The notes under the pieces: generated by a model | The model's database searches: none | Seen by the model: the letters and a program-made list of their open reading frames with translations, nothing else | What the model was told of the DNA's origin: nothing | Origin: Tagaea sp. | Lineage (GTDB): Bacteria > Pseudomonadota > Alphaproteobacteria > CACIAM-22H2 | DNA: 64,000 nucleotides | Assembly: GCA_965279565.1 (NCBI GenBank) | Contig: OZ257249.1 | Location: 2,256,496 to 2,320,495, forward strand | Direction: 5' to 3' | Shown: in pieces, positions 20,377-38,983 of the stretch | Position numbering within the stretch: position 1 is the first letter of the stretch | How the letters are laid out: the number at the start of each line of letters is the position of its first letter | Position numbers and translations under genes: made by a program

Positions 20377-22796
20377 GCGAGGATCTTCGCGCGCTTGGGA
20401 TCGACCGCCGAACCGTCGATCCGTTTGGCCGGCCAGCGCTTCGTGAAGGCCTCGATCTCGTAATCCGCGTGGCCGGCCGCGTCGGTCGGAACGTAGCCGA
20501 ACCCGATCGCCTTGCCGATCGTATGGCCCCAGCCCGCCGACGACGTGACGCCGACGACCTTGCCGCCCAGCACGATCGATTCGCCGCCATAGAGCTGCAC
20601 GGGCGCATCGACGGTCAGCGTGATCAGCTTGCGCCGTGGCCCTTCGGCCTTCGCCTTTTCCAGTGCCGCGCGGCCGACGAAGTCGGACTTCTTGGCGAGT
20701 GCCACCGCGAAGCCGAGGCCCGCCTCGTAGGGCGTGTAGTCCGGCGTGATGTCGGCACCCCAGTAGAGATAGCGCTTTTCCAGCCGCAGCGAGTCGATGG
20801 CGCGGTAGCCGGCATCGGCCAGCCCGTGCGCCTTGCCCGCCTCGGCGAGCAGTTCGTAGACGTGCTGCGCGTACTCGACCGGCATGTGCAGCTCCCAGCC
20901 GAGCTCGCCCACATAGGTCACGCGCATCGCCAGCACGGGCGCGAAGCCGATGCGGATTTCCTTCGCCGTCATGTACGGGAACGCGGCGTTCGACACGTCG
21001 CCGTCGGCGACCGCCGACAGGATGTCGCGCGAACGCGGGCCCGCGAGGTTGATCGTCGCGCGTCCGGACGTGACGTCGGCGACGTGGACCGAGCCGTCCT
21101 TCGGCAGGTGGCCGCGGATCCACGCGATGTCGCGCACGCCGAAGGCACTGCCTGTGACCATGTAGAAGCGGTCCTCGTCGAGCCGGACGAAGGTCAGGTC
21201 GGCCTCGATGCCGCCGCGCGCGTTGCACAGCTGCGTGTAGATCAGGCTGCCCGCCGGCTTGTCGACGTCGTTGGCCGCGATGCGTTGCAGGGCGGCGAAC
21301 GTGCCGGAGCCAGTGAACTCGAATTTCGAGAACGAGCTCTGGTCGATCACGACCGCGCGTTCGCGCGCGGCCTTGCACTCGCCCGCCACGTGCTGGAACC
21401 AGTTGGGCCGCGATTCGAACGAGGGCTTGTCCACGGGTTCAACGCCGGCGGGAGCGAACCAGTTCGGCCGTTCCCAGCCGAAGCGCGAACCGAAGACCGC
21501 GCGCTTTTCCTTGAGCGCGCCATAGAGCGGGCTGCGCCGGCCGCCGCGGGCACTTTCCAGCTCCTCGATCGGATAGTGGATCTGGTAGTAGCGCCAGTAG
21601 CTGTCGACGCTGCGCTCGGCGAGATACTTGGCCGACATGTGGTGTGCGCCGAAGCGGCGCACGTCGAAGGCCCACAGATCCATCGACGGTTCGCCCGCGA
21701 CGATCCATTCGGCCATCGCCTTGCCGGCACCGCCGGACGCCGCGATGCCCGACGTGAAGCCGCACGCCACGTAGAAGTTTTCGCGCTCCGGGGCGAGCCC
21801 CATGATCGGCTCGCCGTCGGGCGAGATCGGGATCGGGCCGTTGATGACCGTGCGGATGCCGATCTCGTTGAGGATCGGCAGGCGCTCGGCCGCCGGCAGC
21901 AGGAAGGCCTCGAGCCGGTCCTGGTTGGGCGGGAACAGTTCGCGCCCGAAATCGAACGGCATGCCCTTGGCGCCGAAGGTCGGCGTGCCCTGTTCCCAGC
22001 CGCCGATGGCCAGCGCCCCCGGCTCGGGCTTCAGGTAGAAGATCTTGTCGGGGTCGCGCAGCGTCGGCAGGCCCTTGGGGATGTCGTTGCGCTTCTCGGT
22101 GATCAGGTACTGGTGCTCGACCGCACCTGCGGGCACGCGCACGCCGGCCATCGCGGCCACGTCGCGTGCCCAGATGCCGGCGGCATTGACGACGATCTCG
22201 CACGCGATGTCGCCCTTGTCGGTGCGCACGCCCGTGATGCGGCGCTCCTTCGTCTCGAAGCCCTTCACGAGGATGCCTTCGACGAACTTCACGCCGTTCT
22301 TGCGCGCACCCTTGGCGTAGGCGTGCGTCAGGCTCGACGGATCGACCGACCCGTCATTCGGCACGAAGACGGCGCCGACGACGTCGTCGAGCGAGATCAG
22401 CGGGAACTTCTCCTGCGCTTCCTTCGGCGACAGCGTGTGCAGCTCGAAATCGAAGCTGCGCGCGGTCGTCGCCATACGCTTGAGCTCGCTCCAGCGCTCC
22501 TGCGAGGAAGCGAGGCGCAGGCTGCCGACCGGCTTCCATTCCACCGCCTGGCCCGTCTCTTCCTCGAGCTTCGCGTAAAGCTGGGCCGAGTACTGCATGA
22601 GCCGCGTGAGATTGCGCTTCGAGCGCAGCTGGCCCACGAGGCCGGCGGCATGCCAGGTCGAACCGTGGGTGAGGGCGGCCTTCTCGAGGACGACGACGTC
22701 GCGTTCGCCGAGTTTTGCCAGGTGATACGCGATGGAGCAACCGACCGCCCCACCACCGATGACCACGATTCGCGCGTGGCCGGGAAGGTCAGCCAC
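20373..22796 (-). CDS. Dimethylglycine/sarcosine dehydrogenase family FAD-dependent oxidoreductase with C-terminal aminomethyltransferase (GcvT-like) domain
   Basis: N-terminal IVVIGGGAVGCSIAYHLAKLG FAD motif. 807 aa with a folate-binding GcvT-like C-terminus. Confidence 0.85.
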   Translation of the reverse strand: MADLPGHARIVVIGGGAVGCSIAYHLAKLGERDVVVLEKAALTHGSTWHAAGLVGQLRSKRNLTRLMQYSAQLYAKLEEETGQAVEWKPVGSLRLASSQERWSELKRMATTARSFDFELHTLSPKEAQEKFPLISLDDVVGAVFVPNDGSVDPSSLTHAYAKGARKNGVKFVEGILVKGFETKERRITGVRTDKGDIACEIVVNAAGIWARDVAAMAGVRVPAGAVEHQYLITEKRNDIPKGLPTLRDPDKIFYLKPEPGALAIGGWEQGTPTFGAKGMPFDFGRELFPPNQDRLEAFLLPAAERLPILNEIGIRTVINGPIPISPDGEPIMGLAPERENFYVACGFTSGIAASGGAGKAMAEWIVAGEPSMDLWAFDVRRFGAHHMSAKYLAERSVDSYWRYYQIHYPIEELESARGGRRSPLYGALKEKRAVFGSRFGWERPNWFAPAGVEPVDKPSFESRPNWFQHVAGECKAARERAVVIDQSSFSKFEFTGSGTFAALQRIAANDVDKPAGSLIYTQLCNARGGIEADLTFVRLDEDRFYMVTGSAFGVRDIAWIRGHLPKDGSVHVADVTSGRATINLAGPRSRDILSAVADGDVSNAAFPYMTAKEIRIGFAPVLAMRVTYVGELGWELHMPVEYAQHVYELLAEAGKAHGLADAGYRAIDSLRLEKRYLYWGADITPDYTPYEAGLGFAVALAKKSDFVGRAALEKAKAEGPRRKLITLTVDAPVQLYGGESIVLGGKVVGVTSSAGWGHTIGKAIGFGYVPTDAAGHADYEIEAFTKRWPAKRIDGSAVDPKRAKILA

Positions 22797-24033
22797 GCAG
22801 TTCTCCGATGTACCAGTCGTCGAAATGGGTCACGTTGCGCTCGCGCAGGGTGGAGTAGGGGCCGGGCAGGTAGCCGGGCGAGCTGACGCCCGCCTGCTGG
22901 TCCTCGCAGATCTTCCAGTCCTGCCGGTTCGTGATGTCCCAGATCGGCAGCAGCTTGTCGAGCGTGTAATCCTTGCCCTCGACGGCCGTGGCGTCGACCA
23001 GCCAGTAGCCACGCACATGCGTCTCGCCCGGGCCGATCGGCGTCAGGCGCGCGGCGGCCGCGAAGTCGCAGTTCGTGTGCTGCCAGAAATTCGGGAACAC
23101 GGTCGTGCGCAGCGTGCCGCTGTCGGGCTCCTTGATGTCGCCCATCAGCTTCGACACCATCTGGCCATCCATGCTCTGCGTGACGAAGCCTTCGCGCACC
23201 GGCGTGCGGTGGCAGCGCCAGTTGACGCCGGTCATGTTCGAGCTGGCGTCGCCGGTGTCGAGACCGAGTGCCGCGAAGCGCACGTTCGCCTTCTCGATGA
23301 TCGCTTCCATGCCAGGCAGCAGCGTCGGATCGACGATGGCGTTGTCGCGCTGCACGTCGTAGGCGGCGGTGTTGTATTCCTTGTGGTTGGCCGGGCAGTG
23401 GTAGCACTCGCGGTTGTTCTGGAAGACGACCTTCCAGTTGGCCTTCACCACGTATTCGATCTTATGCGCGATCTTCGCGCGGTCGATCGCGTGCGGCTTC
23501 ATCTTGCGCCGGATCGTGTCGGCGGCATCCGTGAAGTCCGGCGGATTGTCGGTCAGCGAGAAGAACAGCAGGCCGCCCGCGTCGATCAGCTTCACCGGGC
23601 GCAGGCCGAGTTCCGAACGGTCGACGCCGAATTCCTTGCGGGGATCGAACATCAGGCTGCCGTCAAGCCTGTAGGTCCATTTGTGGTAGGGGCACGCCAG
23701 CACGCTGCTGTGGCCGTGCTCGGTGAGGCAGACCTTGGAGCCGCGATGGCGGCATACATTGTGGAAGGCGCGGATGACGCCGTCCTGGCCGCGCACGACG
23801 ACGATCTCCGCACCCGCGACCGCATAGGTCATGTGGTCGCCGGGCTTCGCCACCTCGAAACCGTATCCGATGAACAGCCAGTGCCGGTGATGGATGCGCG
23901 CGACGTCGGCCGCGAACAGCGCGTCGTCGACATAGAATTCCCGCGTCAGGGACCGGCCGGAGACATGTCGGGCGACCGCCCCTGCGGCCACGGGCGCCAG
24001 TGCGCCCGGTGAATCGCGACCCGATCCGTCCAT
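22789..24033 (-). CDS. Rieske (2Fe-2S) aromatic-ring-hydroxylating oxygenase alpha subunit, glycine-betaine demethylase (GbcA)/CntA-like
   Basis: Rieske motif CRHRG...CPYHKW. A mononuclear-iron site candidate lies in NNRECYHCPANH. 8-bp overlap with the downstream dimethylglycine dehydrogenase gene. Confidence 0.8.
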   Translation of the reverse strand: MDGSGRDSPGALAPVAAGAVARHVSGRSLTREFYVDDALFAADVARIHHRHWLFIGYGFEVAKPGDHMTYAVAGAEIVVVRGQDGVIRAFHNVCRHRGSKVCLTEHGHSSVLACPYHKWTYRLDGSLMFDPRKEFGVDRSELGLRPVKLIDAGGLLFFSLTDNPPDFTDAADTIRRKMKPHAIDRAKIAHKIEYVVKANWKVVFQNNRECYHCPANHKEYNTAAYDVQRDNAIVDPTLLPGMEAIIEKANVRFAALGLDTGDASSNMTGVNWRCHRTPVREGFVTQSMDGQMVSKLMGDIKEPDSGTLRTTVFPNFWQHTNCDFAAAARLTPIGPGETHVRGYWLVDATAVEGKDYTLDKLLPIWDITNRQDWKICEDQQAGVSSPGYLPGPYSTLRERNVTHFDDWYIGELRG

Positions 24034-26878: not shown

Positions 26879-27076
26879 TTACTTCGGATCAGGACGGAAG
26901 CGGGCCGGGTTCAGCAGGACCGGGCAGGCGACGACGCGCACGATTTCAGGGTCATAGAGTGCGCGGAGCCGGGCATGCGGAACCGTGTAGCCGTCCTGCA
27001 GAACGGCCTCGACGACCCAGCCATAAAGTTCGTGACTGACGAAACGCTGCCCCGGACGGATCGATTCGACATCCAT
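26879..27076 (-). CDS. Hypothetical small protein (65 aa)
   Basis: Short ORF with acceptable GC3 bias. Confidence 0.3.
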   Translation of the reverse strand: MDVESIRPGQRFVSHELYGWVVEAVLQDGYTVPHARLRALYDPEIVRVVACPVLLNPARFRPDPK

Positions 27077-27149
27077 GCCGCAAATACTACGCCATGTCAG
27101 TAGCTTGCGCCAAGTGGCGGCAAATTCGCCGGAGACCTATGATCGCCGG

Positions 27150-27599
27150 ATGCGTCTTTGCGCCATCCTCGCCGCCTGCTTCGTGTTCGCCGCGCCGCCG
27201 GTCGTGGCGCAGGAACCTGCGCGCACGAACGACCGGCACCTGAACCGGAAGTTCGATGCGGTCGGGCCGACGCCGGCGGTGCTGCCGCCGGTCCGCGAGG
27301 CGCCACGCGAACGCCCGGTCTATCTGCGCACGTCGAAGCCGCTTTCCGAGATCGCAGAGCTGGACCAGAAGGCGTCGGCGGCGTGCCGCGTCCACGATTT
27401 CGGACAGTTCGAGCAGCATCGCGGGCGGGCATTGATCGCGGGGCGCACCTACGGCGCGGCCGCTTCGGGCAGCGACCTTCTGGCCGACCATCCCAAGCTG
27501 GCGGCGCGTCCGCCGGCGGTCTACGTCTTCGAGCATCAGGGGATGACCGCCTGCCGCGTCTGGCGCGTCAAGCCGGCGGCGTTGCGGGCGGCGAACTAG
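27150..27599 (+). CDS. Hypothetical secreted protein
   Basis: Signal peptide MRLCAILAACFVFAAPPVVAQ. Confidence 0.45.
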   Translation: MRLCAILAACFVFAAPPVVAQEPARTNDRHLNRKFDAVGPTPAVLPPVREAPRERPVYLRTSKPLSEIAELDQKASAACRVHDFGQFEQHRGRALIAGRTYGAAASGSDLLADHPKLAARPPAVYVFEHQGMTACRVWRVKPAALRAAN

Positions 27600-27898
27600 C
27601 CTTCGGCGGGCGGGGCCGGCGGCTTGGCCTGGAGATCGCCGAAGATCTTGGTGATGACGTCCTCGAGGCTCTTCTTTTCCTCGTCCTTCAGCTTCACGCC
27701 CTCGTCGATGAAATCGACGTTCGACGAGATCTGCCGGATCGCGGCGGCGAGGTAGATGTCCATGATCTCGCGGATCGCGTGGAACGCCTTGCAGTTCACC
27801 GAATCCATGCGCGAGTCGAAGATCGCCGTGATCGTTCCGCACCGGTTGAGGGTGTTCTGCAGCTCCAGTCGGCGCTTTTCGTCCATTCCGTCGGCCAT
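27596..27898 (-). CDS. Hypothetical cytoplasmic protein (100 aa)
   Basis: Helical and charged (KLKDEEKKSLEDVITKIFGDL). 4-bp overlap with the upstream plus-strand ORF stop. Confidence 0.45.
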   Translation of the reverse strand: MADGMDEKRRLELQNTLNRCGTITAIFDSRMDSVNCKAFHAIREIMDIYLAAAIRQISSNVDFIDEGVKLKDEEKKSLEDVITKIFGDLQAKPPAPPAEG

Positions 27899-27936: not shown

Positions 27937-29148
27937 TTAACCGGTCCGTGCGGCGTCGGCGCGCATGGCGCGCACAGCCATGGCGTGCAGCAGGACCGAG
28001 GCGATCCCGCACAGCATCATCGCCACGGCGAGCGGGCGCATCGTGCCGTCCTGCAGGTGCCCGATGACGAACGTGGCGAGTGCCCCCAGCGACATCTGGA
28101 AGCAACCGAGCAGGCCCGAGGCGGAGCCCGCCAGCCGCGGATTCACGCTGACCGCGCCCGCGATCAGGTTGGGCTGCGACAGGCCGTGGCAGAAGCCGAT
28201 CACGAAGATCGGCACGAAAAGCGCCCAGACCTGGAGCTCGAAGAAGAACGCCCAGACGAGGCCGAAGACCAGGCCCGGGAAGGTCAGCGCGTTTCCCAGC
28301 CGCGCCATCCGGTCGAGCCCGATGCGCTGCGAATAGCGGCCGGTCGCGTAGTTCCCGAACAGGTAGCCGAGCGCGCAGCCGGCGAACCAGAAGCCGTATT
28401 CGGACGGCGGCCGGCCGAGCACGCTTACCATCAGATAGGGGGCCGCCACGAGGAAGCAGAAGAACGACATCGTGTTGCACGTCATCGCCAGCGTGTAGCC
28501 GAGGAAGGCGCGGCTGCGCACCAGCGACGTCCAGCCGCGCACGAGCTGGCCCATCTCGACGTTGGCGATGCGGTTGTGGTTGGTCTCCGGGCAGCGCAGG
28601 GCCGCCGCGACCGTGACGGCCGCCACGAAGACGAGGATCACGGCGAAGCTCGCCCGCCACGAGAAATGCTCGTCGAGCAGGCCGCCGATCGACGGGGCGA
28701 CCATCGGCATCAGCGACATGCCCATCGTGACGTAGGCGATCTCGCTCGCCGCCCGGTCGCGCGAGTGCAGGTCGCGCACGATCGCGCGGGCGAGCACCAG
28801 GCCCGCGCACGATCCGAAGGCCTGCGCGAAGCGCCCGGCAAGCAGCCCTTCCATCGAGGTCGCGAACAGGCAGGCGAGGCTGCCCGCAAGGCCGAGGGTC
28901 AGGCCGACGAGCAGGACCGGCCGCCGGCCGTAGCTGTCGGAAAACGGCCCGTAGACGAGCTGGCCGACGGCCACGCCGACCAGAAACAGCGTCAAGGCGA
29001 GCTGGGCAGTGCCATAGCTCGACTCGAACGCTTCCGCCAGGCGCGGTAGCGAGGGAATGAAGACGTTCAGCGCGAACGGCCCGCAACTGCTGATGCCGAC
29101 AAGCAGCCAGAGGGGCGGGCGCGCGATCAGGGGCGAGTCTTTCTGCAC
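27937..29148 (-). CDS. MFS transporter, Bcr/CflA drug-resistance efflux subfamily
   Basis: 12 TM helices with the conserved GPFSDSYGRRPVLL motif A. Divergent from the large transglutaminase gene. Confidence 0.8.
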   Translation of the reverse strand: MQKDSPLIARPPLWLLVGISSCGPFALNVFIPSLPRLAEAFESSYGTAQLALTLFLVGVAVGQLVYGPFSDSYGRRPVLLVGLTLGLAGSLACLFATSMEGLLAGRFAQAFGSCAGLVLARAIVRDLHSRDRAASEIAYVTMGMSLMPMVAPSIGGLLDEHFSWRASFAVILVFVAAVTVAAALRCPETNHNRIANVEMGQLVRGWTSLVRSRAFLGYTLAMTCNTMSFFCFLVAAPYLMVSVLGRPPSEYGFWFAGCALGYLFGNYATGRYSQRIGLDRMARLGNALTFPGLVFGLVWAFFFELQVWALFVPIFVIGFCHGLSQPNLIAGAVSVNPRLAGSASGLLGCFQMSLGALATFVIGHLQDGTMRPLAVAMMLCGIASVLLHAMAVRAMRADAARTG

Positions 29149-29296
29149 GGTTGGCGCAATCTAGCGGGCTGGCGCGACCATTGCACTGTAGTTGCACGCG
29201 CCTTGCAGGCAGGGCGGGTACACTTGCAACGCATGGCGATCCGGCGCACCTTGCGCCGCATCGCTCCCCCTTCTTTTGGGAACAGTCGGCACGACC

Positions 29297-32200
29297 ATGA
29301 CCCTGCACGTGGCATTGCACCACCGGACGGCCTACCGCTACGACCGGCTGATCAATCTCGGGCCCCAGATCGTCCGGCTGCGCCCGGCCCCGCATTCGCG
29401 CACGCCCGTCCTGTCCTATTCGCTGACGATCGAGCCGAAGCCCAATTTTCTGAACTGGCAGCAGGACCCGCAGGGCAACTGGCTGGCCCGTCTCGTGTTC
29501 CCCGAGAAGACCGACCATTTCACGGTCGATGTCGATCTCGTCGCCGACATGGCGATCGTCAATCCGTTCGACTTCTTCCTCGAGCCCTATGCCGAGAAGT
29601 TCCCGTTCAAGTACGAGGACGGATTGCTGGAAGACCTCGCCCCGTTCATGAAGCCGGAGAAGGCCGGCCCGCTGCTCGCCAAGTGGCTGGCCCAGGTACC
29701 CAAGGAAGCCGAACGCACGATCGACTTCCTCGTCGGCCTCAACCAGCGCCTGCAGAAAGACATCGGCTACATCATCCGTCTCGAACCGGGCGTGCAGACC
29801 TTCGAGCAGACGCTGTCGCTGGGCAAGGGTTCGTGCCGCGACACGGGCTGGCTGCTCGTCCAGATCCTGCGCCATCTCGGGTTTGCCGCACGCTTCGTGT
29901 CGGGCTACCTGATCCAGCTCGTCGCCGACCAGAAGGCGCTCGACGGACCGTCGGGCACCGAGATCGATTTCACCGACCTTCACGCGTGGACGGAAGTGTA
30001 CATGCCGGGTGCCGGCTGGATCGGGCTCGATCCTACGTCGGGCCTGATGACGGGCGAAGGGCACATCCCGCTCGCCGCCACGCCGGCCCCGTCGTCGGCC
30101 GCCCCGGTCGAAGGGCTGATCGAGAAGTGCGAGGTCGAGTTCCATCACGAAATGAAGGTCATGCGCGTGGCCGAGAGTGCCCGCGTCACCAAGCCCTATA
30201 CGGAAGAGACGTGGGCGAAGATCGAAGCACTCGGCCACACGGTCGACGGTCATCTTGCCAAGGGCGACGTGCGCCTGACGATGGGCGGCGAGCCGACCTT
30301 CGTGTCGATCGACGACATGGACGGGCCGGAATGGAATACGGCCGCCCTCGGACCGACCAAGCGCCGGCTCGCGGGCAACCTGCTGAAGCGCCTGCAGCGC
30401 CTGTGGTCGCCCGGTGCCCTGCTGCATTACGGACAAGGCAAGTGGTATCCGGGCGAACAGCTGCCGCGCTGGGCGCTGGGCTGCTTCTGGCGAAAGGACG
30501 GCGAACCGATCTGGCGCGATCCCGCGCTGATCGCGGACGACACGCTCAAGTCCAACGTCAACTACGAGCATGCCGAACGCTTCGCGCACCGGCTGTGCGA
30601 ACGCCTCGGCATTCCCGAGCAGTTCGCGCACCGCGCCTATGAGGACGCCTGGTATTACCTGTGGCGCGAGCAGCGCCTGCCGGTGAATGTCGATCCGCTG
30701 AAATCGAACCTGAAGGACCCCGAGGAGCGCGCGCGCCTTTCGCGCATCTTCGAGAAGGGCCTCGACGAGCCGGTCGGCGTGATGCTGCCGATCCATCGCG
30801 GCTGGCAGGGCGGGGCGCGCAAATGGACCAGCGGCTTCTGGTTCGTGCGCCCGCAGCACATGTTCCTCATCCCCGGCGATTCGCCGATGGGCTACCGCCT
30901 GCCGCTCGACAGCGTGCCGTGGGTGGCACCGGCCGACTATCCCTATCACTGGGAGCGTGATCCGTTCGAGGATCTGCCGCCGCTGCCCGCGCGCGACAAG
31001 CGCGAACGCTCGCTCGCCGTGTCGGGCAACGCGCCGCGTACCGGCTTCGCCCATCAGGGCGGCATGGGAACGGGGCCGGACGGCCGCCCGTTGGCGCCCG
31101 ACCGCAAGATGCTCGACGAGCTGCGCCGGCGCGAGCGCAACTCGATCAAGCCGCAGAGCTCGGCCTCGTGGGTCGTGCGCACGGCCATGTGCATCGAGCC
31201 GCGCGACGGGCTGCTGCACGTCTTCATGCCGCCCTGTCCGACGGCGGAGGACTATCTCGACCTCATCGCCAGCATCGAGGACACGGCCGCCGATCTCGGC
31301 CAGCCGGTGCTGATCGAGGGCTACGCCCCGCCGTCCGATCCGCGCATCGAGAGCTTCTCGGTCACGCCCGATCCCGGCGTGATCGAGGTAAACGTGCATC
31401 CCGCGAAATCGTGGAGCGAGATCGTCGACCGCACGACCGTGCTCTACGAGGAAGCGCGCCAGACGCGTCTGGGTTCCGAGAAGTTCATGGTCGACGGCCG
31501 CCATGTCGGCACCGGCGGGGGCAACCATTTCGTGCTCGGCGGCTCGACACCCGCGGACTCGCCGTGGCTGCGCCGGCCCGACCTGCTCGGCTCGATGCTG
31601 CGCTTCTGGCACAACCATCCGAGCCTTTCCTATCTGTTCTCGGGCCTGTTCATCGGGCCGACCTCGCAGCATCCGCGCGTCGACGAGGCGCGCGAGGACC
31701 AGGTGCACGAGCTGGAGCTGGCGCTTTCCCAGCTTCCCGCGAAGGACACGGCCGGCATCGCGCCGTGGCTCGTCGACCGGGTCCTGCGCAACGTGCTGGT
31801 CGATCTCACCGGCAACACGCACCGCACCGAGTTCTGCGTCGACAAGCTGTTCTCGCCCGACCATTCGGGCGGGCGGCGCGGGCTCGTGGAACTGCGCGCC
31901 TTCGAGATGCCGCCGCATGCGCGCATGAGCCTCGTCCAGCAGCTGCTGCTGCGCAGCCTCGTGTCGCATTTCTGGGAAGAGCCCTACACGCACCGTCTCG
32001 TGCGCTGGGGCAACCGCGTCCACGACCGCTTCATGCTGCCGCACTTCGTGCGCGAGGACCTGACCGACGTGCTCGAGACGATGCGCGACGCGGGCTACGG
32101 ATTCGAGGATTCGTGGTTCGATCCGCACCACGAGTTCCGCTTCCCCAAGCTCGGCTCGGTCGCCTATCGCGGCGTCGACATCGAGCTTCGCCACGCGCTC

Positions 32201-32680
32201 GAGCCCTGGCACGTGCTGGGCGAGGAGGCGGGGGCGGGAGGTACCGTGCGCTATGTCGACAGTTCGCTCGAACGCCTGCAGGTGCGCGTGCGCAACCTCG
32301 TCGATTCGCGCCACACGATCCTGTGCAACGGCGTGGCCGTTCCGCTGCATCCGACCGGCACGGCCGGCGAATACGTCGCGGGCGTGCGTTTCCGCGCGTG
32401 GAACCCGTCCTCGGCGCTGCACCCCACCGTCGGCGTGCATGCCCCGCTGGTGTTCGACCTGCACGACGGCTGGACCGGCCGTTCGGTCGGCGGCTGCACC
32501 TATCACGTCGCGCATCCCGGCGGGCGCAACTACGACAAGTTCCCGGTCAACGCGAACGAGGCCGAGGCGCGCCGGCGCGCGCGCTTCTTCGACATCGGTC
32601 ATACGCCGGGCCGCATGACGCCGCGTATTCCCGTCCCGAACCCCGATTTTCCGCTGACCCTTGACCTGCGCCGTGGCTAG
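29297..32680 (+). CDS. Large transglutaminase-like family protein (N-terminal Tgl cysteine-protease core plus DUF2126-type C-terminal extension), 1127 aa
   Basis: Catalytic triad intact: GKGSCRDTGW, DLHAWTEVYMPG, WIGLDPTSG. Conserved DUF2126-like C-terminal region. Confidence 0.85.
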   Translation: MTLHVALHHRTAYRYDRLINLGPQIVRLRPAPHSRTPVLSYSLTIEPKPNFLNWQQDPQGNWLARLVFPEKTDHFTVDVDLVADMAIVNPFDFFLEPYAEKFPFKYEDGLLEDLAPFMKPEKAGPLLAKWLAQVPKEAERTIDFLVGLNQRLQKDIGYIIRLEPGVQTFEQTLSLGKGSCRDTGWLLVQILRHLGFAARFVSGYLIQLVADQKALDGPSGTEIDFTDLHAWTEVYMPGAGWIGLDPTSGLMTGEGHIPLAATPAPSSAAPVEGLIEKCEVEFHHEMKVMRVAESARVTKPYTEETWAKIEALGHTVDGHLAKGDVRLTMGGEPTFVSIDDMDGPEWNTAALGPTKRRLAGNLLKRLQRLWSPGALLHYGQGKWYPGEQLPRWALGCFWRKDGEPIWRDPALIADDTLKSNVNYEHAERFAHRLCERLGIPEQFAHRAYEDAWYYLWREQRLPVNVDPLKSNLKDPEERARLSRIFEKGLDEPVGVMLPIHRGWQGGARKWTSGFWFVRPQHMFLIPGDSPMGYRLPLDSVPWVAPADYPYHWERDPFEDLPPLPARDKRERSLAVSGNAPRTGFAHQGGMGTGPDGRPLAPDRKMLDELRRRERNSIKPQSSASWVVRTAMCIEPRDGLLHVFMPPCPTAEDYLDLIASIEDTAADLGQPVLIEGYAPPSDPRIESFSVTPDPGVIEVNVHPAKSWSEIVDRTTVLYEEARQTRLGSEKFMVDGRHVGTGGGNHFVLGGSTPADSPWLRRPDLLGSMLRFWHNHPSLSYLFSGLFIGPTSQHPRVDEAREDQVHELELALSQLPAKDTAGIAPWLVDRVLRNVLVDLTGNTHRTEFCVDKLFSPDHSGGRRGLVELRAFEMPPHARMSLVQQLLLRSLVSHFWEEPYTHRLVRWGNRVHDRFMLPHFVREDLTDVLETMRDAGYGFEDSWFDPHHEFRFPKLGSVAYRGVDIELRHALEPWHVLGEEAGAGGTVRYVDSSLERLQVRVRNLVDSRHTILCNGVAVPLHPTGTAGEYVAGVRFRAWNPSSALHPTVGVHAPLVFDLHDGWTGRSVGGCTYHVAHPGGRNYDKFPVNANEAEARRRARFFDIGHTPGRMTPRIPVPNPDFPLTLDLRRG

Positions 32681-32721
32681 CCTTCAAGCTTCGCGATTGC
32701 CCTGACCAGCCCGAGGAGTCG

Positions 32722-35274
32722 ATGGAGGAAGCGCGCCTGACCGCTGCTGCCGGTGCCGAGCCGGCGGCCGACAAGCCGCCGCCCTTCGACGAGATGGTCA
32801 CGGGGGCGGGGCAGATCCGTCCGCACTGGCAGCCTTTGATGGGGGCGCTGCGCACGCTGCCTTCGGGCGCGCTGGCCGAGCGCATGGACCGCGCGCGCCG
32901 CCAATACGACGAGAACGGCGTCACCTACAACGTCTTCGCCGAGACGCGCGGGCCGCAGCGGCCCTGGCAGTTCGACCTGCTGCCGCTGCCGATCCCGGCC
33001 GAGGAATGGGCGGGGATCGAATCGGCCCTCGTCAAGCGCGCCACGCTGCTCGACAAGATCCTCGCCGACATCTACGGCCCGCAGAGCCTGATCCGCGACC
33101 GGCTGCTGCCGCCGGCCCTCGTCCACACCAATCCCGCCTTCCTGCGCCCGTGCCACGGCGTGACGCCCGCCAACGGCGCGCCGTTCCTGCATTTCTATGC
33201 GGCCGACATCGCGCGCGGGCTCGACGGGCGCTGGCGCGTGTGCGCCGACCGCGTCAACGCGCCGTCGGGGGCAGGCTACGCGCTGGAGAACCGCAACGTG
33301 CTGATGCGCACGCTGCCCGAGCTGTTCCAGGCCTCGACCGTGCGCCGCCTCGGGCCGTTCTTCGAGCTGTGGCAGGCGGCCCTTGCGCAGCTTGCACCCA
33401 AGCATCGCGAGAATCCGCGCATCGTGCTGCTCACGCCCGGCCCCTACAGCGAGACCTATTTCGAGCATGTCTATCTCGCACGCCAGCTCGGCCTGACGCT
33501 GGCCGAGGGTGCGGATCTCACCGTGCGCGACGCCAAGGTGTTCCTGAAGACGCTCGGCGGCCTGCAGCAGGTCGACGTGATCCTGCGCCGGCTCGACGAC
33601 GACTACTGCGATCCGGTCGAGCTGCGCCCGGAATCGGCGATCGGCGTGGCAGGGCTGGTCGATGCCGTGCGCGCGGGCAGCGTCACGCTCGCCAACGCGC
33701 TGGGGGCCGGCGTGGTCGAAACGCCGGCGATCCTGCCGTTCCTGCCGGGCCTCGCGCAGCGCCTGCTGGGCGAGGATCTCGGCATGCCGTCGATCGAGAC
33801 CTGGTGGCTCGGCCAACGCGCCGTGTTCGACCAGGTGGTCGAGCGCATCGAGGACTACGTCTTCCGCCCGTGCTTCGCCGGCGACGGGTTCGAGCCGGCG
33901 GTCGTCGGCTCCGACGTCGAGCCGGGCAAGCGCAAGGCCTTCATCGAACGCCTGCGCGCGCGCCCGCACCGCTACGTGGCGCAGGCGCGCATGCACAAGT
34001 CGGCGATGCCGGTCTGGTCGGCGAACGGCCTGATCCCGCGCCCGCTGATGGTGCGCTGCTTCCTGGTGCGCCACGAAGGCACCTACGTGCCGATGCCCGG
34101 CGGCATGACGCGCGTATCGGCCGACGACACCGGCGTCGACATCTCGATGCAGCGCGGTGGTGCGGCCAAGGACACGTGGGTGATCGAGCGCGAGCTTGCC
34201 CCCGTCGTCGTGGGCACGCGTTCGCAGGCGGCGCGCGAGCCGCTGCGCCGCTCGGCGGGCGAACTGCAGAGCCGCGTGGCCGACAATCTCTTCTGGCTCG
34301 GCCGCTATGCCGAGCGGCTGGACAATGCCGCGCGCCTGATGCGCGCGAGCCTGATGCGCGTTCCCGCCGGCGGGGCGTCGGCGCGCGAACTGGCCGAGTT
34401 CCAGGCGCTCGCGCGCATGCTGGGCGAACGCGGCCTCGTCGAGCGCACGATGGGCGGGTTGCCCGATGGCCGCTCGATGATGGAAGCGCTGGGCCACGCC
34501 TGCGGTTCCGACCAGGGCATTTCGCACCTGTTCCAGGCGATCCAGCGCATCGCACCCACCGTGCGCGACCGCCTGTCGGCCGACATGTGGAACGTCGTCA
34601 ACGACCTGCTGCGCGACGCACGCCTGCGCCTGGAAGGCCAGCCGGGCGATGCCGACCGCCTGCTCGAAGGTATGGACCACACGATCGGCGTGTGCGCCGC
34701 CTTCCACGGCATGGCGTCGGAGAACATGACGCGCGGCTCGGGCTGGCGCTTCCTCGATCTCGGCCGGCGCCTCGAACGTGCGGCGCACGGCGCTTCGGTC
34801 GTGCGCGACGTGTTCGCCGCGTCGGGCCACGGGTCGGAGCCGTGGCTGCGCCTGCTGCTGGAGCTCTGCGACAGCTCGATCACCTACCGCACGCGCTACA
34901 TGGCGGCGGTGCAGCCGGCCCCCGTGCTCGACCTGCTGCTGTGCGACGACACGAACCCGCGCTCGGTCGCCTTCCAGCTCCAGCTCGTCGCCGAGCATCT
35001 CGACCGGCTCGCGCGCCGCGACGTACGCCCGCTCTCGCAGCCCGAGCAGAAGATCGCGCGCGCGGCCCTGACGGCCGTCGAACTGTTCGATGTCGAGCGC
35101 GTCGGTTCGACGATCGACCGCGACGCGATGGGGCTGCTCGACGACCTGGTTGGCGGCATGCAGGGCCGGCTCGCCGACCTGTCGGAGGCGATCACGCGCG
35201 CCTATTTCAGCCATGTCGAGACGGTCCAGTCGATCGGCTACGAGGTGGCGCCCGCCCGCGAGGACGGCGCATGA
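32722..35274 (+). CDS. Circularly permuted ATP-grasp type 2 domain fused to an alpha-E domain (COG2307/COG2308-like amidoligase)
   Basis: 850 aa. ATP-grasp-like N-terminal half and helical alpha-E C-terminal half (NLFWLGRYAERLDNAARLMRA...). Confidence 0.85.
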   Translation: MEEARLTAAAGAEPAADKPPPFDEMVTGAGQIRPHWQPLMGALRTLPSGALAERMDRARRQYDENGVTYNVFAETRGPQRPWQFDLLPLPIPAEEWAGIESALVKRATLLDKILADIYGPQSLIRDRLLPPALVHTNPAFLRPCHGVTPANGAPFLHFYAADIARGLDGRWRVCADRVNAPSGAGYALENRNVLMRTLPELFQASTVRRLGPFFELWQAALAQLAPKHRENPRIVLLTPGPYSETYFEHVYLARQLGLTLAEGADLTVRDAKVFLKTLGGLQQVDVILRRLDDDYCDPVELRPESAIGVAGLVDAVRAGSVTLANALGAGVVETPAILPFLPGLAQRLLGEDLGMPSIETWWLGQRAVFDQVVERIEDYVFRPCFAGDGFEPAVVGSDVEPGKRKAFIERLRARPHRYVAQARMHKSAMPVWSANGLIPRPLMVRCFLVRHEGTYVPMPGGMTRVSADDTGVDISMQRGGAAKDTWVIERELAPVVVGTRSQAAREPLRRSAGELQSRVADNLFWLGRYAERLDNAARLMRASLMRVPAGGASARELAEFQALARMLGERGLVERTMGGLPDGRSMMEALGHACGSDQGISHLFQAIQRIAPTVRDRLSADMWNVVNDLLRDARLRLEGQPGDADRLLEGMDHTIGVCAAFHGMASENMTRGSGWRFLDLGRRLERAAHGASVVRDVFAASGHGSEPWLRLLLELCDSSITYRTRYMAAVQPAPVLDLLLCDDTNPRSVAFQLQLVAEHLDRLARRDVRPLSQPEQKIARAALTAVELFDVERVGSTIDRDAMGLLDDLVGGMQGRLADLSEAITRAYFSHVETVQSIGYEVAPAREDGA

Positions 35275-36173
35275 TCTACGACGTCGTCCATCGCACGACC
35301 TACCGCTATGCCGAGCCGGTCGATCTTTCCTATCACGTGATGCGCCTCAGCCCTCGCGCACTGACCCACCAGCGCGTGCTGCGCACCGCCGTGATCGCGA
35401 CACCGGCCCCCGTGCGCGTGCACGACACGACCGACTATTTCGGCAACGTCTCGACCTACATGTCGCTCGAGGAGCCGCACGCCGAACTCGTCGTCGACGC
35501 GCGCTGTGCGGTCGACGTGCAGTTCCCGGCACCGCCCGATTCCGCATCGACCCCGCCGTGGGAACAGGTGCGCGATTCCCTCGACGGCGGCGGCCTGCCG
35601 ACCGAGACGCTGGCGGTCGAGTTCGTGCGCGAATCCCCGCTTGTCGCGGTCGACGACGCGGTGCGCGAGTTCGCGGCCCCGTCCTTTGCGCCCGGCCGTC
35701 CGGTGCTGGCCTGCTTCCTCGACCTCAACCGGCGGATCAAGGCGGAGTTCACGTTCGACCCGCGCGCCACCGGTGTCGCCACCGCCGTGCGCGAGGTCAT
35801 GCAGCTGCGCCGCGGCGTGTGCCAGGATTTCGCGCACGTGATGATCGCGAGCATCCGCGCGATGGGCCTCGCCGCGCGCTACGTGTCGGGCTACATCCGC
35901 ACCCACGCGCCGGCCGGCCAGCCACGCCGCATCGGCGCCGACGCGAGCCATGCGTGGGTCGGCGTCTTCGTGCCGGGTGCGGGCTGGATCGATCTCGACC
36001 CGACGAACGATCTGGTCGTCCACGACGAACACGTCGTTCTCGGCTGGGGCCGCGACTATGGCGACATCGCGCCGATCCGCGGCGTCATCCTCGGCGGCGG
36101 GACGCACCGGCTGGACGTGTCGGTCGACCTGCGCCCGCTCGACGTCTCATACGCGTCGGAACAGGACGGATAG
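35271..36173 (+). CDS. Transglutaminase-like cysteine protease family protein (bact_TGnt N-domain plus Tgl core)
   Basis: MIYDVVHRTTYRYAEPV N-domain. Triad RRGVCQDFAHV, SHAWVGVFVPGAGWIDLDPTN. ATGA coupling with the upstream ATP-grasp gene. Confidence 0.85.
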   Translation: MIYDVVHRTTYRYAEPVDLSYHVMRLSPRALTHQRVLRTAVIATPAPVRVHDTTDYFGNVSTYMSLEEPHAELVVDARCAVDVQFPAPPDSASTPPWEQVRDSLDGGGLPTETLAVEFVRESPLVAVDDAVREFAAPSFAPGRPVLACFLDLNRRIKAEFTFDPRATGVATAVREVMQLRRGVCQDFAHVMIASIRAMGLAARYVSGYIRTHAPAGQPRRIGADASHAWVGVFVPGAGWIDLDPTNDLVVHDEHVVLGWGRDYGDIAPIRGVILGGGTHRLDVSVDLRPLDVSYASEQDG

Positions 36174-36746
36174 GTTGTTGGCCGGCATCGCGACGACCGT
36201 CGGCGACGCGAACCCTTCCGCCGCCGCGATCACGTCGGCGAGATCGCGCACACCCCATGCCGGATCGCGTGCGCGCAGGCTTTCGTCGAACGAAGCGTTC
36301 GACGGTGCGGTGTGCGCGCCGTCGCGCATGAAGGGCCCGTACAGGTAGAGAAGCCCGCCGGGCGCGAGCAGCCGGGCGGCACCGCGCATCAGGCCGAGGC
36401 ACGCGGCCCAGGGTGCGATGTGGATCATGTTGATGCACAGCACCGCGTCGGCCGTGGCGAGCGGCCAGATTTCCGCCGTCGCGTCGAGGGCCAGCGGGGG
36501 CAGCAGGTTCGGCCCGCCGTCGGACGCGATCCACGCGGCGATCGAGGCGCGGTTGGCGGGATCTGGGTCGCTCGGCTGCCAGACAAGCGTGGGGAAGGCG
36601 GCGGCGAACGCAAGCGCATGCTCGCCGGAGCCCGAGGCGATCTCCAGTGCGGTCCCGCTTGCGGGCAGGCGCTCGCGCAGGACGTCGAGGATCGGTTCGC
36701 GGTTGCGCGCGACGGCGGGGGCCTGGCGGCGCGCGTCGCCGGTCAT
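36147..36746 (-). CDS. DUF938-family class I SAM-dependent methyltransferase-like protein
   Basis: 199 aa from MTGDARRQAPAVARNREPILDVL. 27-bp convergent overlap with the 3' end of the transglutaminase gene. Confidence 0.6.
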   Translation of the reverse strand: MTGDARRQAPAVARNREPILDVLRERLPASGTALEIASGSGEHALAFAAAFPTLVWQPSDPDPANRASIAAWIASDGGPNLLPPLALDATAEIWPLATADAVLCINMIHIAPWAACLGLMRGAARLLAPGGLLYLYGPFMRDGAHTAPSNASFDESLRARDPAWGVRDLADVIAAAEGFASPTVVAMPANNLSVLFRRV

Positions 36747-38116
36747 GCCAGCAGCTTTCGCGCGGTCTTCGCGAAATCGCTGGCGGCTTGCTCGGCGTGC
36801 CGGTGATGGCCCTCGCGCACGACCCATTGGCCGCCGACAACCACGTCGCGCACCGGGTTCGAGTTTCCGCAGAACAGCCACGCGTCGACCAGCGTGTCGG
36901 GTGCTCGGGCGACCAGGGCAGGATGCTCGTCGTCGAGCACGACGAAGTCGGCGCGGTAGCCGGGCGTCAGGGCACCCGTCTTCCGTCCGGCCGCCTGCGC
37001 GCCGCCGGCACGCGCACGTTCGAACAGGAACGCGCCGGTGGAATCGCCTTCGGGCCGGTGCGTCACGTTGCGGCCGAGATGGATGAGGCGCTGGCCGTAG
37101 TCGAGCCAGCGCAGTTCCTCGACCGGGCTCGTCGACACGTTGGAATCCGTGCCGACGCCGAAGATGCCGCCGGCCTTCAGGAAGTCGCCGAACGGGAAAA
37201 GCCCGTCGCCCAGATTGGCTTCCGTCGCCGGGCAGATGCCGACGACGGCGCTACGCTTCGCCATCGCATCGACCTCGGCCGGCGTGACGTGCGTGGCATG
37301 GACGAGGCACCAGCGCCGGTCGACCGGCGCATTGGCCAGCAGCCAGTCGACCGGCGTCTTGCCCGACCAGACCTTGCAGTCGGCAACTTCCTTGGGCTGT
37401 TCGGCGATGTGGATGTGGATGGGCGCATCGGCATCGAGCCGGTCGAGCATCGCGAGTGCTGCCTTCAGCGCCGGCGGCGTGACCGCGCGCAGCGAATGCG
37501 GAGCGATCCCCACGCGCACCTGCGGATCGCCGCGATGGCGGCGCACGAGCCGCTCGACGAGATCAGCGTAGGAATCGTCGTCGAGCACGAAGCGCTTCTG
37601 CCCGTCGTTGGGGGCCGTCCCGCCGAAGCCGCTCGTCTGGTAGAGGACGGGCAGCAGCGTCAGGCCGATGCCCGATGCGGCCGACGCCGCGACGATCCGG
37701 TCGGAAAGCTCGGTCGGCACGTCGTAGCGCTCGCCGTCGGGATCGTTGTGCACGTAGTGGAACTCGCACACGCTGGTGAAGCCATGGCGCACGAGTTCGA
37801 CATAGAGCTGCGTGGCGACCGCCTCGACGTCGCGAGGGTGCAGGCGCCGGATGAAGCGGTACATGATGTCGCGCCAGGACCAGAAATTGTCACCCTGCGG
37901 GCCCGCGCGCTCGCCCAGTCCCGCCATCGCGCGCTGGAAAGCATGGCTGTGCAGGTCGGCGAGGCCAGGCAGGACGGGACCCGCGAGCCTCTCAGCACCG
38001 ACGGCATCCGCACCGGCAACGACCGAGACGAGATCGCCGCGCGCGTCGACCGCGAAGCGCACGTCGCGTGTCCAGCCGGTCGGCAGCAGGGCAAGGGAGG
38101 CGAAAAAATCTGGCAT
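36743..38116 (-). CDS. hutF: Formimidoylglutamate deiminase (amidohydrolase superfamily)
   Basis: 457 aa. Metal-binding HSHAFQRAM near the N-terminus; the overall amidohydrolase layout matches HutF. Confidence 0.8.
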   Translation of the reverse strand: MPDFFASLALLPTGWTRDVRFAVDARGDLVSVVAGADAVGAERLAGPVLPGLADLHSHAFQRAMAGLGERAGPQGDNFWSWRDIMYRFIRRLHPRDVEAVATQLYVELVRHGFTSVCEFHYVHNDPDGERYDVPTELSDRIVAASAASGIGLTLLPVLYQTSGFGGTAPNDGQKRFVLDDDSYADLVERLVRRHRGDPQVRVGIAPHSLRAVTPPALKAALAMLDRLDADAPIHIHIAEQPKEVADCKVWSGKTPVDWLLANAPVDRRWCLVHATHVTPAEVDAMAKRSAVVGICPATEANLGDGLFPFGDFLKAGGIFGVGTDSNVSTSPVEELRWLDYGQRLIHLGRNVTHRPEGDSTGAFLFERARAGGAQAAGRKTGALTPGYRADFVVLDDEHPALVARAPDTLVDAWLFCGNSNPVRDVVVGGQWVVREGHHRHAEQAASDFAKTARKLLA

Positions 38117-38179
38117 GGCACTGGAATCCCCGAACGAAGCGCCTATTCTTGGGGCGGACGCGGCCGGAAAGGAAGCTTC

Positions 38180-38983
38180 TTGAAACCGATCTACGAACTC
38201 GCACCGGGCACGACCCCGCTGCTGATCAGCGTGCCGCATGCCGGCACCTACGTGCCCGACGCCATCGCCGCACGCCTCACCCCCGAAGCGCTGGCGATGC
38301 CCGATACCGACTGGCACGTCGAGAAGCTCTATTCGTTCGCCGCCGAGCTGGGTGCGGGCCTGATCGTCGCCACGCATTCGCGCTATGCGGTCGATCTCAA
38401 TCGCGATCCGTCGGGCACGCCGCTCTATCCGGGGCGGGACAATACCGAACTGGTGCCGCTGGGCACGTTCGCGAGCCAGCCGGTCTACCGCAAGGGTCAG
38501 GAACCGGACAAGGCGGAGGAGGCCGAGCGCGTCGCGCGTTTCTGGCGCCCCTACCACGCGGCACTTGCCGGCGAACTCGACGCGATCGTCGCGCGCCACG
38601 GCATTGCCGTGCTGTGGGACGGACATTCGATCCCGGCCGAGGTGCCGCGTCTGTTCGAGGGACGCCTGCCCGACCTCAATCTCGGCTCCGCGGCGGGAGT
38701 TTCGGCCGATCCGGACCTGCGCGACTGTGCAAGTGCGGCCCTCGACGGGCCGGGCATGAGCCTCGTCGTCGACGGGCGGTTCAAGGGTGGCTACATCACG
38801 CGGCTCTATGGCCGGCCGGCCGCGAAGGTGCATGCGCTCCAGCTCGAGAAGGCGATGGCCGCGTACATGGACGAGGCACCACCCTACCGGTGGGACGCCG
38901 CGCGGGCCGCTCCGATGGTGGCACGCCTTCGCCGCACGATGGGTGCGGTCACAGCCTGGGCCGTTTCGCGCGCGAAGGCCTGA
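38180..38983 (+). CDS. hutG: N-formylglutamate amidohydrolase (HutG family)
   Basis: LLISVPHAGTYVP...HSRYAVDLNRD...VLWDGHSIPAE signatures. TTG start at 38180 after GGAAAGGAAG. Confidence 0.75.
   Translation: MKPIYELAPGTTPLLISVPHAGTYVPDAIAARLTPEALAMPDTDWHVEKLYSFAAELGAGLIVATHSRYAVDLNRDPSGTPLYPGRDNTELVPLGTFASQPVYRKGQEPDKAEEAERVARFWRPYHAALAGELDAIVARHGIAVLWDGHSIPAEVPRLFEGRLPDLNLGSAAGVSADPDLRDCASAALDGPGMSLVVDGRFKGGYITRLYGRPAAKVHALQLEKAMAAYMDEAPPYRWDAARAAPMVARLRRTMGAVTAWAVSRAKA

Follow-up and report, generated by a model that had tools for sequence, protein, structure and literature searches.

Organization of the locus

The three genes considered here, A, B and C, occupy positions 29297-36173 on the plus strand of the window, the whole 64-kb stretch of DNA that was analysed, and their open reading frames and translations agree with these coordinates. 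The genes and the domains they encode are as follows.

29297..32680, plus strand: gene A, 1127 aa; Bact_transglu_N, Transglut_core and DUF2126
29312-29545, plus strand: Bact_transglu_N of A (Pfam, 2e-25)
29708-30034, plus strand: Transglut_core of A (Pfam, 2e-15); triad C180/H229/D245
30122-32671, plus strand: DUF2126 of A (PF09899, E=0, 1347 bits, profile positions 1-826 of 826)
32722..35274, plus strand: gene B, 850 aa; circularly permuted ATP-grasp fused to Alpha-E; GAGGAG ribosome-binding site
32983-34119, plus strand: circularly permuted ATP-grasp of B (CP_ATPgrasp_2, 1e-139; CP_ATPgrasp_1, 3e-97)
34264-35208, plus strand: Alpha-E helical domain of B (Pfam, 1e-68)
35271..36173, plus strand: gene C, 300 aa; stand-alone transglutaminase-like thiol enzyme
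35277-35513, plus strand: Bact_transglu_N of C (Pfam, 9e-24)
35724-36002, plus strand: Transglut_core of C (Pfam, 1e-19); triad C184/H227/D243

The Pfam searches recovered every domain (CP_ATPgrasp_2, Alpha-E, Transglut_core, Bact_transglu_N and DUF2126) that an earlier interpretation of this DNA, hereafter the sequence-only reading, had assigned to the three proteins. The arrangement that it described, with three co-directional, tightly packed genes of which the last two are coupled, is likewise seen directly, as the stop codon of B and the start codon of C overlap in an ATGA (GGCGCATGATC). Neither a sigma-70-like promoter nor a terminator-like site was found within the operon, the window contains one A-B-C set only, and no PADLOC model of anti-phage defence matched A, B or C.

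Domain architecture and catalytic residues

Gene A encodes a member of the large Tgl-DUF2126 family (Rv2566 type), bearing N-terminal Bact_transglu_N and Transglut_core domains with their triad together with a full-length C-terminal DUF2126. DUF2126 returns 3157 cluster representatives at E<=1e-30, clustering at 50% identity leaves gene A with over 3000 representatives, and A shares 58-66% identity with orthologues of other phyla. Gene C is a paralogue of the A N-terminus (26% identity). The motifs read earlier as complete catalytic triads, GSCRD/HAWTEV/GLDPT in A and GVCQD/HAWVGV/DLDPT in C, are present in both proteins, and their triad residues are invariant across 46 homologues of A and 69 homologues of C.

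[quoted passage not shown] Confidence in the AF2 models is moderate (pLDDT 65 and 74), and a Foldseek search matched the Tgl domain alone. Invariant acidic, basic and His residues of A fall on predicted strands (E634/R636, E674, D692/E697/N699, H744 and E865/R867/E870) and appear, by inspection, compatible with a GS-type site; ligase activity is predicted. In B, residues 18-489 match PDB 3n6x at 2.8e-81. Given the GS-fold ligase of A, the system is thus one of two ligases and two thiol enzymes.

Conserved synteny and gene neighbourhood

With its ATP-grasp and Alpha-E domains and a co-directional transglutaminase-like neighbour, the locus belongs to the circularly permuted ATP-grasp/Alpha-E/transglutaminase system (Iyer 2009). 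The order A-B-C, with B always fused, was found in all 67 diverse loci that offered enough sequence, in keeping with the conserved operon supposed in the sequence-only reading. These loci span at least five phyla (Proteobacteria, Acidobacteriota, Verrucomicrobiota, Planctomycetota and Bacteroidota), and most belong to bacteria living free in soil and water. A-B-C is an unexceptional representative of a three-gene operon type found very widely in bacteria, the Rv2566/Rv2567 type, which Iyer, Burroughs and Aravind predicted from bioinformatics in 2008-2009; the kind of system is real and already known, and this copy has no new architecture.

The synteny also bears on a reading of C as a secreted broad-specificity protease or virulence factor, the role claimed for the putative homologue Rv2569c of Mycobacterium tuberculosis, with the ligases as unrelated neighbours. 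AEBSF and PMSF, both serine-protease inhibitors, block the activity reported for Rv2569c, but E-64 and N-ethylmaleimide do not, a pattern at odds with an enzyme of the Cys-His-Asp fold. Together with the translational coupling of C to B and its syntenic position in the A-B-C order (67/67 loci), this leaves such an explanation scarcely credible.

The sole recurrent neighbours of A-B-C are a paralogous ATP-grasp and Alpha-E set, whose unfused genes adjoin the operon at 26 of 80 loci, and occasionally an extra Tgl. No transporter, tag gene or secretion gene is conserved beside the operon, nor is any linked catabolic enzyme or transporter for an amine, and no small ORF or protease family is conserved near it in the 80 loci. 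In the present window the operon is flanked upstream by an MFS gene of the Bcr/CflA type (TIGR00710, 2e-83; 27937-29148, minus strand) and downstream by the following gene.

36147-36881, minus strand: ORF of the DUF938 gene (2e-71), convergent, with a 27-nt overlap with the 3' end of C

The DUF938 match falls in this ORF and not in 36085-36840.

The sequence-only reading implied that a peptide or metabolite made by A-B-C is exported by the MFS pump, with the DUF938 protein possibly modifying it. Its account of the layout is accurate: the MFS gene and A have a 148-bp intergenic region in common, a position kept in the five closest relatives, and the convergent overlap of DUF938 with C occurs here and in two of those five, L083 and L084. 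As conserved partners, however, the two genes do not hold up. An MFS homologue is found in none of 80 more distant loci (E<1e-8), among which no transporter family recurs, L082 and L085 retain A-B-C without DUF938, and the sigma-54 motif described below is directed at A only. Being conserved only among close relatives, the MFS and DUF938 genes are therefore bystanders outside the system, and an export pathway of this kind is very improbable.

A predicted sigma-54 promoter

Two features lie in the region between the MFS gene and A.

29170..29185, plus strand: predicted sigma-54 (-24/-12) promoter TGGCGCGACCATTGCA, with GG at 29171-72 and GC at 29183-84
29236..29264, plus strand: leader inverted repeat, 13-nt arms, 3-nt loop, 92% complementary

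The promoter motif fits TGGCACG-N4-TTGCW at 11/12 positions and sits 126 nt upstream of A, so that a correctly placed -24 GG / -12 GC element precedes the first gene, as in members of the sigma-54/Ntr regulon. Transcription would then start near 29195-29197, leaving roughly 100 nt of leader. A search of 28900-29400 returned no sigma-70-like promoter, and neither an activator gene nor rpoN is present in the 64-kb window. Any NtrC site at this locus would need to fall within the MFS coding region.

The motif might be a chance match, and the operon a constitutive housekeeping one with no special nitrogen link in this organism. The 52 of 80 orthologous loci in which A is not immediately preceded by a strong motif would accord with this, although several carry one farther upstream, before a paralogous set; so would the failure to find an activator site, as TGCACC-N5-GGTGCA, an enteric-type NtrC consensus that may not be this lineage's, has no match at 9/12 or better in 28900-29300. 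Yet TGGCGCGACCATTGCA is the best motif of both window strands and the sole match of at least 11/12 on either (128 kb counting both), and both its intergenic position and its orientation are right. Among the 80 orthologous loci, 28 have the motif upstream of A where about 1.75 would be expected, and matches of at least 11/12 occur 17 times, against 0.35 expected, an enrichment of 16- to 49-fold, with 28 matches on the plus strand of these upstream regions and 8 on the minus strand. It is kept in 4/5 of the closest relatives, in a region whose alignment has 66% mean column identity, and in the close relative L085 the -24 GG is displaced by one base. A Burkholderia six-gene array is likewise preceded by a single 11/12 motif.

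Experimental work also argues against chance. The BCAM1233-1236 cluster of B. cenocepacia, which includes an A orthologue, is NtrC/sigma-54 dependent under nitrogen starvation, with a log2FC of -6.0 for the 'large transglutaminase-like protein' (PMC5491218), and the paralogous PP_2685-88 operon of P. putida is induced by nitrogen limitation in an NtrB/C-dependent manner (PMC7801951, PMC3325844). A fortuitous motif is accordingly considered improbable. The three genes appear to be transcribed as one unit from the predicted sigma-54 promoter, which would most probably make them part of the nitrogen-limitation (Ntr) response. That promoter and the published NtrC/nitrogen-starvation control, which covers the A orthologue of Burkholderia and related operons of both Burkholderia and P. 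putida, had no place in the sequence-only reading, and constitute a phenotype-level lead (PMC5491218, PMC7801951).

The inverted repeat of the leader, whose core GGCGCA-N3-TGCGCC is kept in 5/6 close relatives, might serve as an operator or fold into a hairpin; the energy of folding gives no significant signal (z = -1.0), and Rfam has no match to it.

Relationship to characterized and predicted systems

Homologues are presumably present in M. tuberculosis, Pseudomonas and Burkholderia, and Rv2567 is taken to have the same fused architecture as B. The counterparts in M. tuberculosis are Rv2566, a large Tgl with a carboxylate-amine ligase, and Rv2567, a circularly permuted ATP-grasp with Alpha-E, an orthology based on architecture and on the published description. 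Both systems are without a Pup-like small ORF nearby, whereas the locus analysed here is from a proteobacterium and carries a predicted sigma-54 promoter, a type of promoter lacking in actinobacteria.

The Anbu operon, such as PP_2685-2688 of P. putida (circularly permuted ATP-grasp, Alpha-E, transglutaminase-like protein and Anbu), draws on the same three domain families, is also a predicted peptide-ligase/peptidase system, and is NtrC-induced under nitrogen limitation. The two types differ in that ATP-grasp and Alpha-E are fused here (67/67 loci) and separate in the Anbu type, and the ATP-grasp domains of the paralogous set share only 33-36% identity with the fused B type. The Anbu gene is absent from the window and from related loci, which places the operon outside the Anbu subtype, and the 1127-aa protein is an addition that supplies a second ligase, one whose fold is different.

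Unlike the glutathione enzymes (GshA with its GCL fold and the ATP-grasp GshB, GshAB, and glutathionylspermidine synthetase/amidase), the operon proteins have no Pfam match to GSP_synth, GCS or GSH synthetase, and the thiol domain is transglutaminase-like where that of glutathionylspermidine synthetase/amidase is CHAP. In contrast to pupylation, which employs the GS/GCL-fold proteins PafA and Dop, the operon has no linked tag gene, proteasome or AAA unfoldase and is not pupylation-like in this sense; Iyer (2008) likewise found no small tag-protein gene linked to the family. Likeness to pupylation and to tubulin tyrosination/glutamylation, with its TTL/TTLL ATP-grasp ligases and vasohibin-type transglutaminase-like peptidases, is at the level of fold only (~8-10% identity).

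Proposed function

The link to ATP-dependent peptide ligation and processing drawn in the sequence-only reading stands as a published prediction (PMC3495828, PMC5666114, PMC2588565), and a peptide-tag writer/eraser has also been put forward as a prediction (PMC3495828). Its statement that no substrate or product is established agrees with the literature, in which no published substrate, product, activity or mechanism was found for A or B homologues, and in which the sole assay found is one where GABA-trehalose was not made by Rv2567 or Rv2411c.

We infer the chemistry, substrate class and physiological role of the operon as follows, and tentatively favour, with a probability of roughly 0.4, an Ntr-controlled A-B-C machine in which two ligases and two thiol enzymes act as writer and eraser on peptides or proteins, with MFS and DUF938 uninvolved. 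The operon would be a self-contained cytoplasmic machine that both makes and breaks amide bonds, using two unlike ATP-dependent carboxylate-amine ligases, the GS/GCL-fold domain of A and the circularly permuted ATP-grasp of B, the latter fused to Alpha-E as a putative adaptor or regulatory domain, and two papain-fold transglutaminase-like Cys-His-Asp enzymes, the A N-terminus and C. Each ligase would activate a carboxylate as an acyl-phosphate, that of A probably a glutamate-type γ-carboxylate, by analogy with GS, GCL, GmaS and PafA, and that of B perhaps a peptide or amino-acid carboxylate. Once the activated carboxylate is joined to an amine, endogenous peptides or proteins would carry an amino acid or a short peptide as a tag, and the transglutaminase-like domains would remove or transfer these tags via a thioester intermediate, in a cycle that may remodel or recycle cell nitrogen in starvation.

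The same architecture and Ntr control could instead serve small molecules, with nitrogen scavenged or stored as a low-molecular-weight conjugate. Here A would γ-glutamylate an amine, like PuuA, GmaS and naphthylamine-GS, or start a γ-glutamyl peptide, like GshA; B would add a second residue or amine, like GshB or glutathionylspermidine synthetase; and the Tgl enzymes would be amidases or transpeptidases, like PuuD, Gsp amidase and phytochelatin synthase. The closest structural matches of the A ligase are indeed small-molecule enzymes, but A carries an extra Ig-like β-sandwich, a fold typical for macromolecule binding, and the characterised transglutaminase-core enzymes of Bact_transglu_N architecture have proteins as their substrates (TgpA, 6g49). 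Anbu, a proteasome homologue encoded in paralogous operons, points to peptides (PMC5666114), and both a GSP_synth match and a conserved amine transporter or catabolic enzyme beside the operon are lacking. Small-molecule conjugation is regarded as possible and somewhat doubtful.

The writer/eraser on peptides or proteins favoured above could take the form of a nitrogen-starvation-induced protein tagging and de-tagging machine without a genetically encoded tag, a proposal that we hold to be rather unlikely. In this scheme cytoplasmic proteins would receive a glutamyl-type mark, an amino acid or an oligopeptide, assembled by the GS-fold ligase of A together with the ATP-grasp of B; both transglutaminase-like enzymes would erase or transfer the mark, and marked proteins would be sent to turnover or reprogrammed, releasing nitrogen. 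If true, this would represent a widespread bacterial counterpart to pupylation and to tubulin glutamylation/tyrosination.

With several thousand known family members, the operon is among the most widespread and best conserved of bacterial 'known unknowns'. The GS-fold ligase in A and the sigma-54 promoter in many lineages make its function easier to test: the condition to look for is nitrogen limitation, and the chemistry to look for is acyl-phosphate-mediated, probably γ-glutamyl-type amide formation and its thiol-dependent reversal.

Gene structure and domain composition

The operon at 29297-36173 is real and was correctly located by the sequence-only reading; it is an unremarkable copy of a system that is known and widespread but uncharacterised. 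It encodes two ligases of unlike folds, one GS-type and one ATP-grasp, together with two paralogous transglutaminase-like (Tgl) thiol enzymes and an Alpha-E domain. The ORF listing and the translations agree on three co-directional genes, designated A, B and C:

29297-32680, + strand: gene A, 1127 aa
32722-35274, + strand: gene B, 850 aa
35271-36173, + strand: gene C, 300 aa

Protein A comprises Bact_transglu_N, Transglut_core and DUF2126 domains (Pfam). The last of these, at the C-terminus, had been described as an extension; the domain is complete (E=0, 826 of 826 profile positions), but it represents a second ligase, with a GS-type fold. Residues of about 560-625 (window about 30975-31170) form a low-complexity Pro/Arg/Gly-rich linker that is poorly conserved, is modelled with very low confidence and divides DUF2126 into two conserved halves; HMMER matches to A mostly consist of the two stretches flanking it. 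Comparison of A with solved structures, using both the single sequence and a 46-sequence profile, returned the Tgl domain only, with no match for DUF2126; its two halves had no GS or GCS match, not even a weak one, in relaxed Pfam scans.

The ATP-grasp and Alpha-E assignments of the fused protein B are both recovered by Pfam (CP_ATPgrasp_2, 1e-139; CP_ATPgrasp_1, 3e-97; Alpha-E, 1e-68), and no solved relative of the Alpha-E part was found. Protein C carries Bact_transglu_N and Transglut_core domains (Pfam). The Cys-His-Asp motifs noticed earlier are present in both Tgl proteins, and the triads are invariant, as C180/H229/D245 across 46 homologues of A and as C184/H227/D243 across 69 homologues of C. 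The proposed coupling of B and C is borne out by their ATGA overlap. B, whose start lies 41 nt beyond the stop of A, is preceded by a GAGGAG ribosome-binding site. Neither a sigma-70-like promoter nor a terminator-like site was detected inside the A-B-C unit.

Conservation and recurrent partners

Matches to gene A come from more than 8000 clusters at 90% identity and, at E<=1e-30, from the representatives of 3157 clusters at 50% identity; the best protein match, 95% identical, derives from a MAG. A sample of 80 loci (L001-L080), out of more than 600 genome loci, spans the Alpha-, Beta-, Gamma- and Deltaproteobacteria, Acidobacteriota, Verrucomicrobiota, Planctomycetota and Bacteroidota. The expected synteny of the gene triad holds throughout: the order A, B, C on one strand, with B as the fused ATP-grasp and Alpha-E protein, is found in each of the 67 loci whose downstream sequence is long enough. 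Within A, the median identity to the window protein over the 80 loci is 66% in the Tgl part and 58% in DUF2126; the ATP-grasp and Alpha-E parts of B stand at 47% and 33%, and C at 44%. Between phyla, A (58-66% over 1100 aa) is far better conserved than B (33-47%) or C (44%). Such conservation, unusual for an uncharacterised protein, suggests a substrate or complex under tight constraint.

When all flanking ORFs of the 80 loci were clustered, a sole recurrent partner emerged, a paralogous and unfused pair of CP ATP-grasp (~500 aa) and Alpha-E (~330 aa) proteins in 26 loci, at times accompanied by another small Tgl. The pair is 33-36% identical to B and adjoins A-B-C co-directionally or divergently; loci in which it lies upstream of A include L002, L003, L005, L021, L022, L042, L071, L076-L078 and L086. 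No second set of this kind occurs within the 64-kb window. All other neighbours in the 80 loci are lineage-specific (ComEC, YgiQ, azurin, RidA, LOG and DnaB). A role of A-B-C in defence was considered and rejected, PADLOC having returned no match.

Flanking genes in the window

The Bcr/CflA-type MFS gene (27937-29148, minus strand) diverges from A and had been noted beside the system, as had the convergent DUF938 gene overlapping the 3' end of C. Both were rejected as parts of it for want of synteny: an MFS homologue occurs in none of the 80 loci, its position being kept in the five closest relatives only, and the DUF938 gene is found in just two of those five. Judged by gene neighbourhood, both are neighbours and not parts of the system. 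The surroundings also include the following features:

36147-36881, - strand: DUF938 ORF, convergent to C
27075-27599, + strand: DUF8265 gene, between the MFS gene and an ABC permease
27596-27898, - strand: 100-aa ORF with no Pfam match, also between the MFS gene and the ABC permease
20373-24033, - strand: dimethylglycine/sarcosine-dehydrogenase-like protein (DAO + GCV_T) and adjoining Rieske ring-hydroxylating oxygenase alpha subunit

The DUF938 gene itself is real, but its ORF is the one at 36147-36881 and not 36085-36840. Its domain begins at residue 52 of the 244-aa ORF, and the HutF-like amidohydrolase domains begin at about residue 244 of the 696-aa ORF at 36743-38833 (minus strand). The real starts of both genes probably lie further downstream, both ORFs being longer than the likely genes, and the overlap between the two is probably only apparent. 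Each of the five close relatives (L081-L085) also has the DUF8265 gene and the 100-aa ORF. The pair at 20373-24033 looks like a module for the catabolism of glycine betaine or N-methyl compounds, another nitrogen-related neighbour of A-B-C.

A predicted sigma-54 promoter and its probable link to nitrogen limitation

The 148-bp region between the MFS gene and A contains no sigma-70-like promoter. It does contain TGGCGCGACCATTGCA at 29170-29185, which matches 11 of 12 positions of the sigma-54 consensus TGGCACG-N4-TTGCW, a score that no other site in the window reaches on either strand. When the 350 nt upstream of A were searched with this consensus in the 80 loci, 28 loci had a motif of at least 10/12 (about 1.75 expected); motifs of at least 11/12 numbered 17 (0.35 expected). 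On the other strand, these upstream regions gave 8 matches, many of them oriented towards a paralogous ATP-grasp operon that is transcribed divergently; in loci whose paralogous set precedes A on A's own strand, it is this set that has the motif in front.

The -24/-12 element is kept in four of the five closest relatives, in two of which (L083 and L084) it lies about 22 nt further downstream. The window bears a second, degenerate -24/-12-like element lacking the GG, TTGCACGCGCCTTGCA, at 29193-29208; at the aligned position L083 and L084 have the intact motifs TGGCGTGCGGCTTGCA and TGGCGCAGCGCTTGCA, and their upstream motif is absent. From these alignments, the promoter seems to have moved about 22 nt within this clade of close relatives. 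The search for an enteric-type NtrC site was negative, and the window has neither an rpoN gene nor an activator gene.

The leader that separates A from the sigma-54 motif includes an inverted repeat with 13-nt arms (29236-29264), whose core GGCGCA-N3-TGCGCC is kept in five of six close relatives. Conservation of the core as sequence, and not by covariation, suggests protein binding and speaks against an RNA hairpin. An RNA element is not claimed for the leader, which has no Rfam match and no significant fold energy.

In Burkholderia multivorans, a six-gene array in the order grasp2, alphaE2, an unmatched gap, A, B and C is preceded by a single 11/12 sigma-54 motif. This arrangement agrees with B. 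cenocepacia H111, in which BCAM1233-1236 are among the genes most strongly dependent on NtrC and sigma-54 under nitrogen starvation (log2FC -6 to -9.4; PMC5491218). Nitrogen limitation likewise induces the paralogous Anbu operon of P. putida (PP_2685-2688), under the control of NtrB/C (PMC7801951; PMC3325844), and a Bradyrhizobium CP_ATPgrasp_1 gene has been listed with a predicted RpoN site.

Proposed function

Ligases of the GS/GCL/PafA type convert a glutamate gamma-carboxylate to an acyl-phosphate, which is then joined to ammonia, an amine or a lysine, and ATP-grasp ligases carry out the same chemistry on amino-acid or peptide carboxylates. The Cys-His-Asp enzymes of transglutaminase fold cleave or transfer amide bonds via a thioester. 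With the folds, triads, synteny and promoter motif of A-B-C established by observation, its products would be expected, when nitrogen is limiting, to make and reverse amide linkages, probably of the glutamyl type, on an endogenous cytoplasmic substrate. Peptide or protein substrates are favoured, given the published prediction of a peptide tag writer/eraser (PMC3495828), the action on proteins of Tgl enzymes of Bact_transglu_N architecture, the proteasome homologue Anbu carried by paralogous operons and the Ig-like domain in A.

Prediction of this type of system dates from 2008-2009, and work on Anbu also discusses it (PMC5666114). Literature searches turned up neither a biochemical characterisation of A or B nor an established function of the system, and the absence of a published function for close orthologues, as first supposed, stands. 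The sole assay found concerns the B homologues Rv2567 and Rv2411c, which do not make GABA-trehalose and appear only as negative controls. A 2024 paper reported that the Tgl-like Rv2569c is a serine protease cleaving E-cadherin, inhibited by AEBSF and PMSF and insensitive to E-64 and NEM (PMC11081392). This inhibitor profile conflicts with the Cys-His-Asp fold, and a serine protease would leave the conservation of the operon in free-living bacteria unexplained; the activity may come from a contaminant.

For this system, the present analysis confirms a second ligase at the fold level, removes the MFS and DUF938 genes from it, and adds a cross-phylum link to sigma-54 and nitrogen limitation that provides a condition under which to seek its function.
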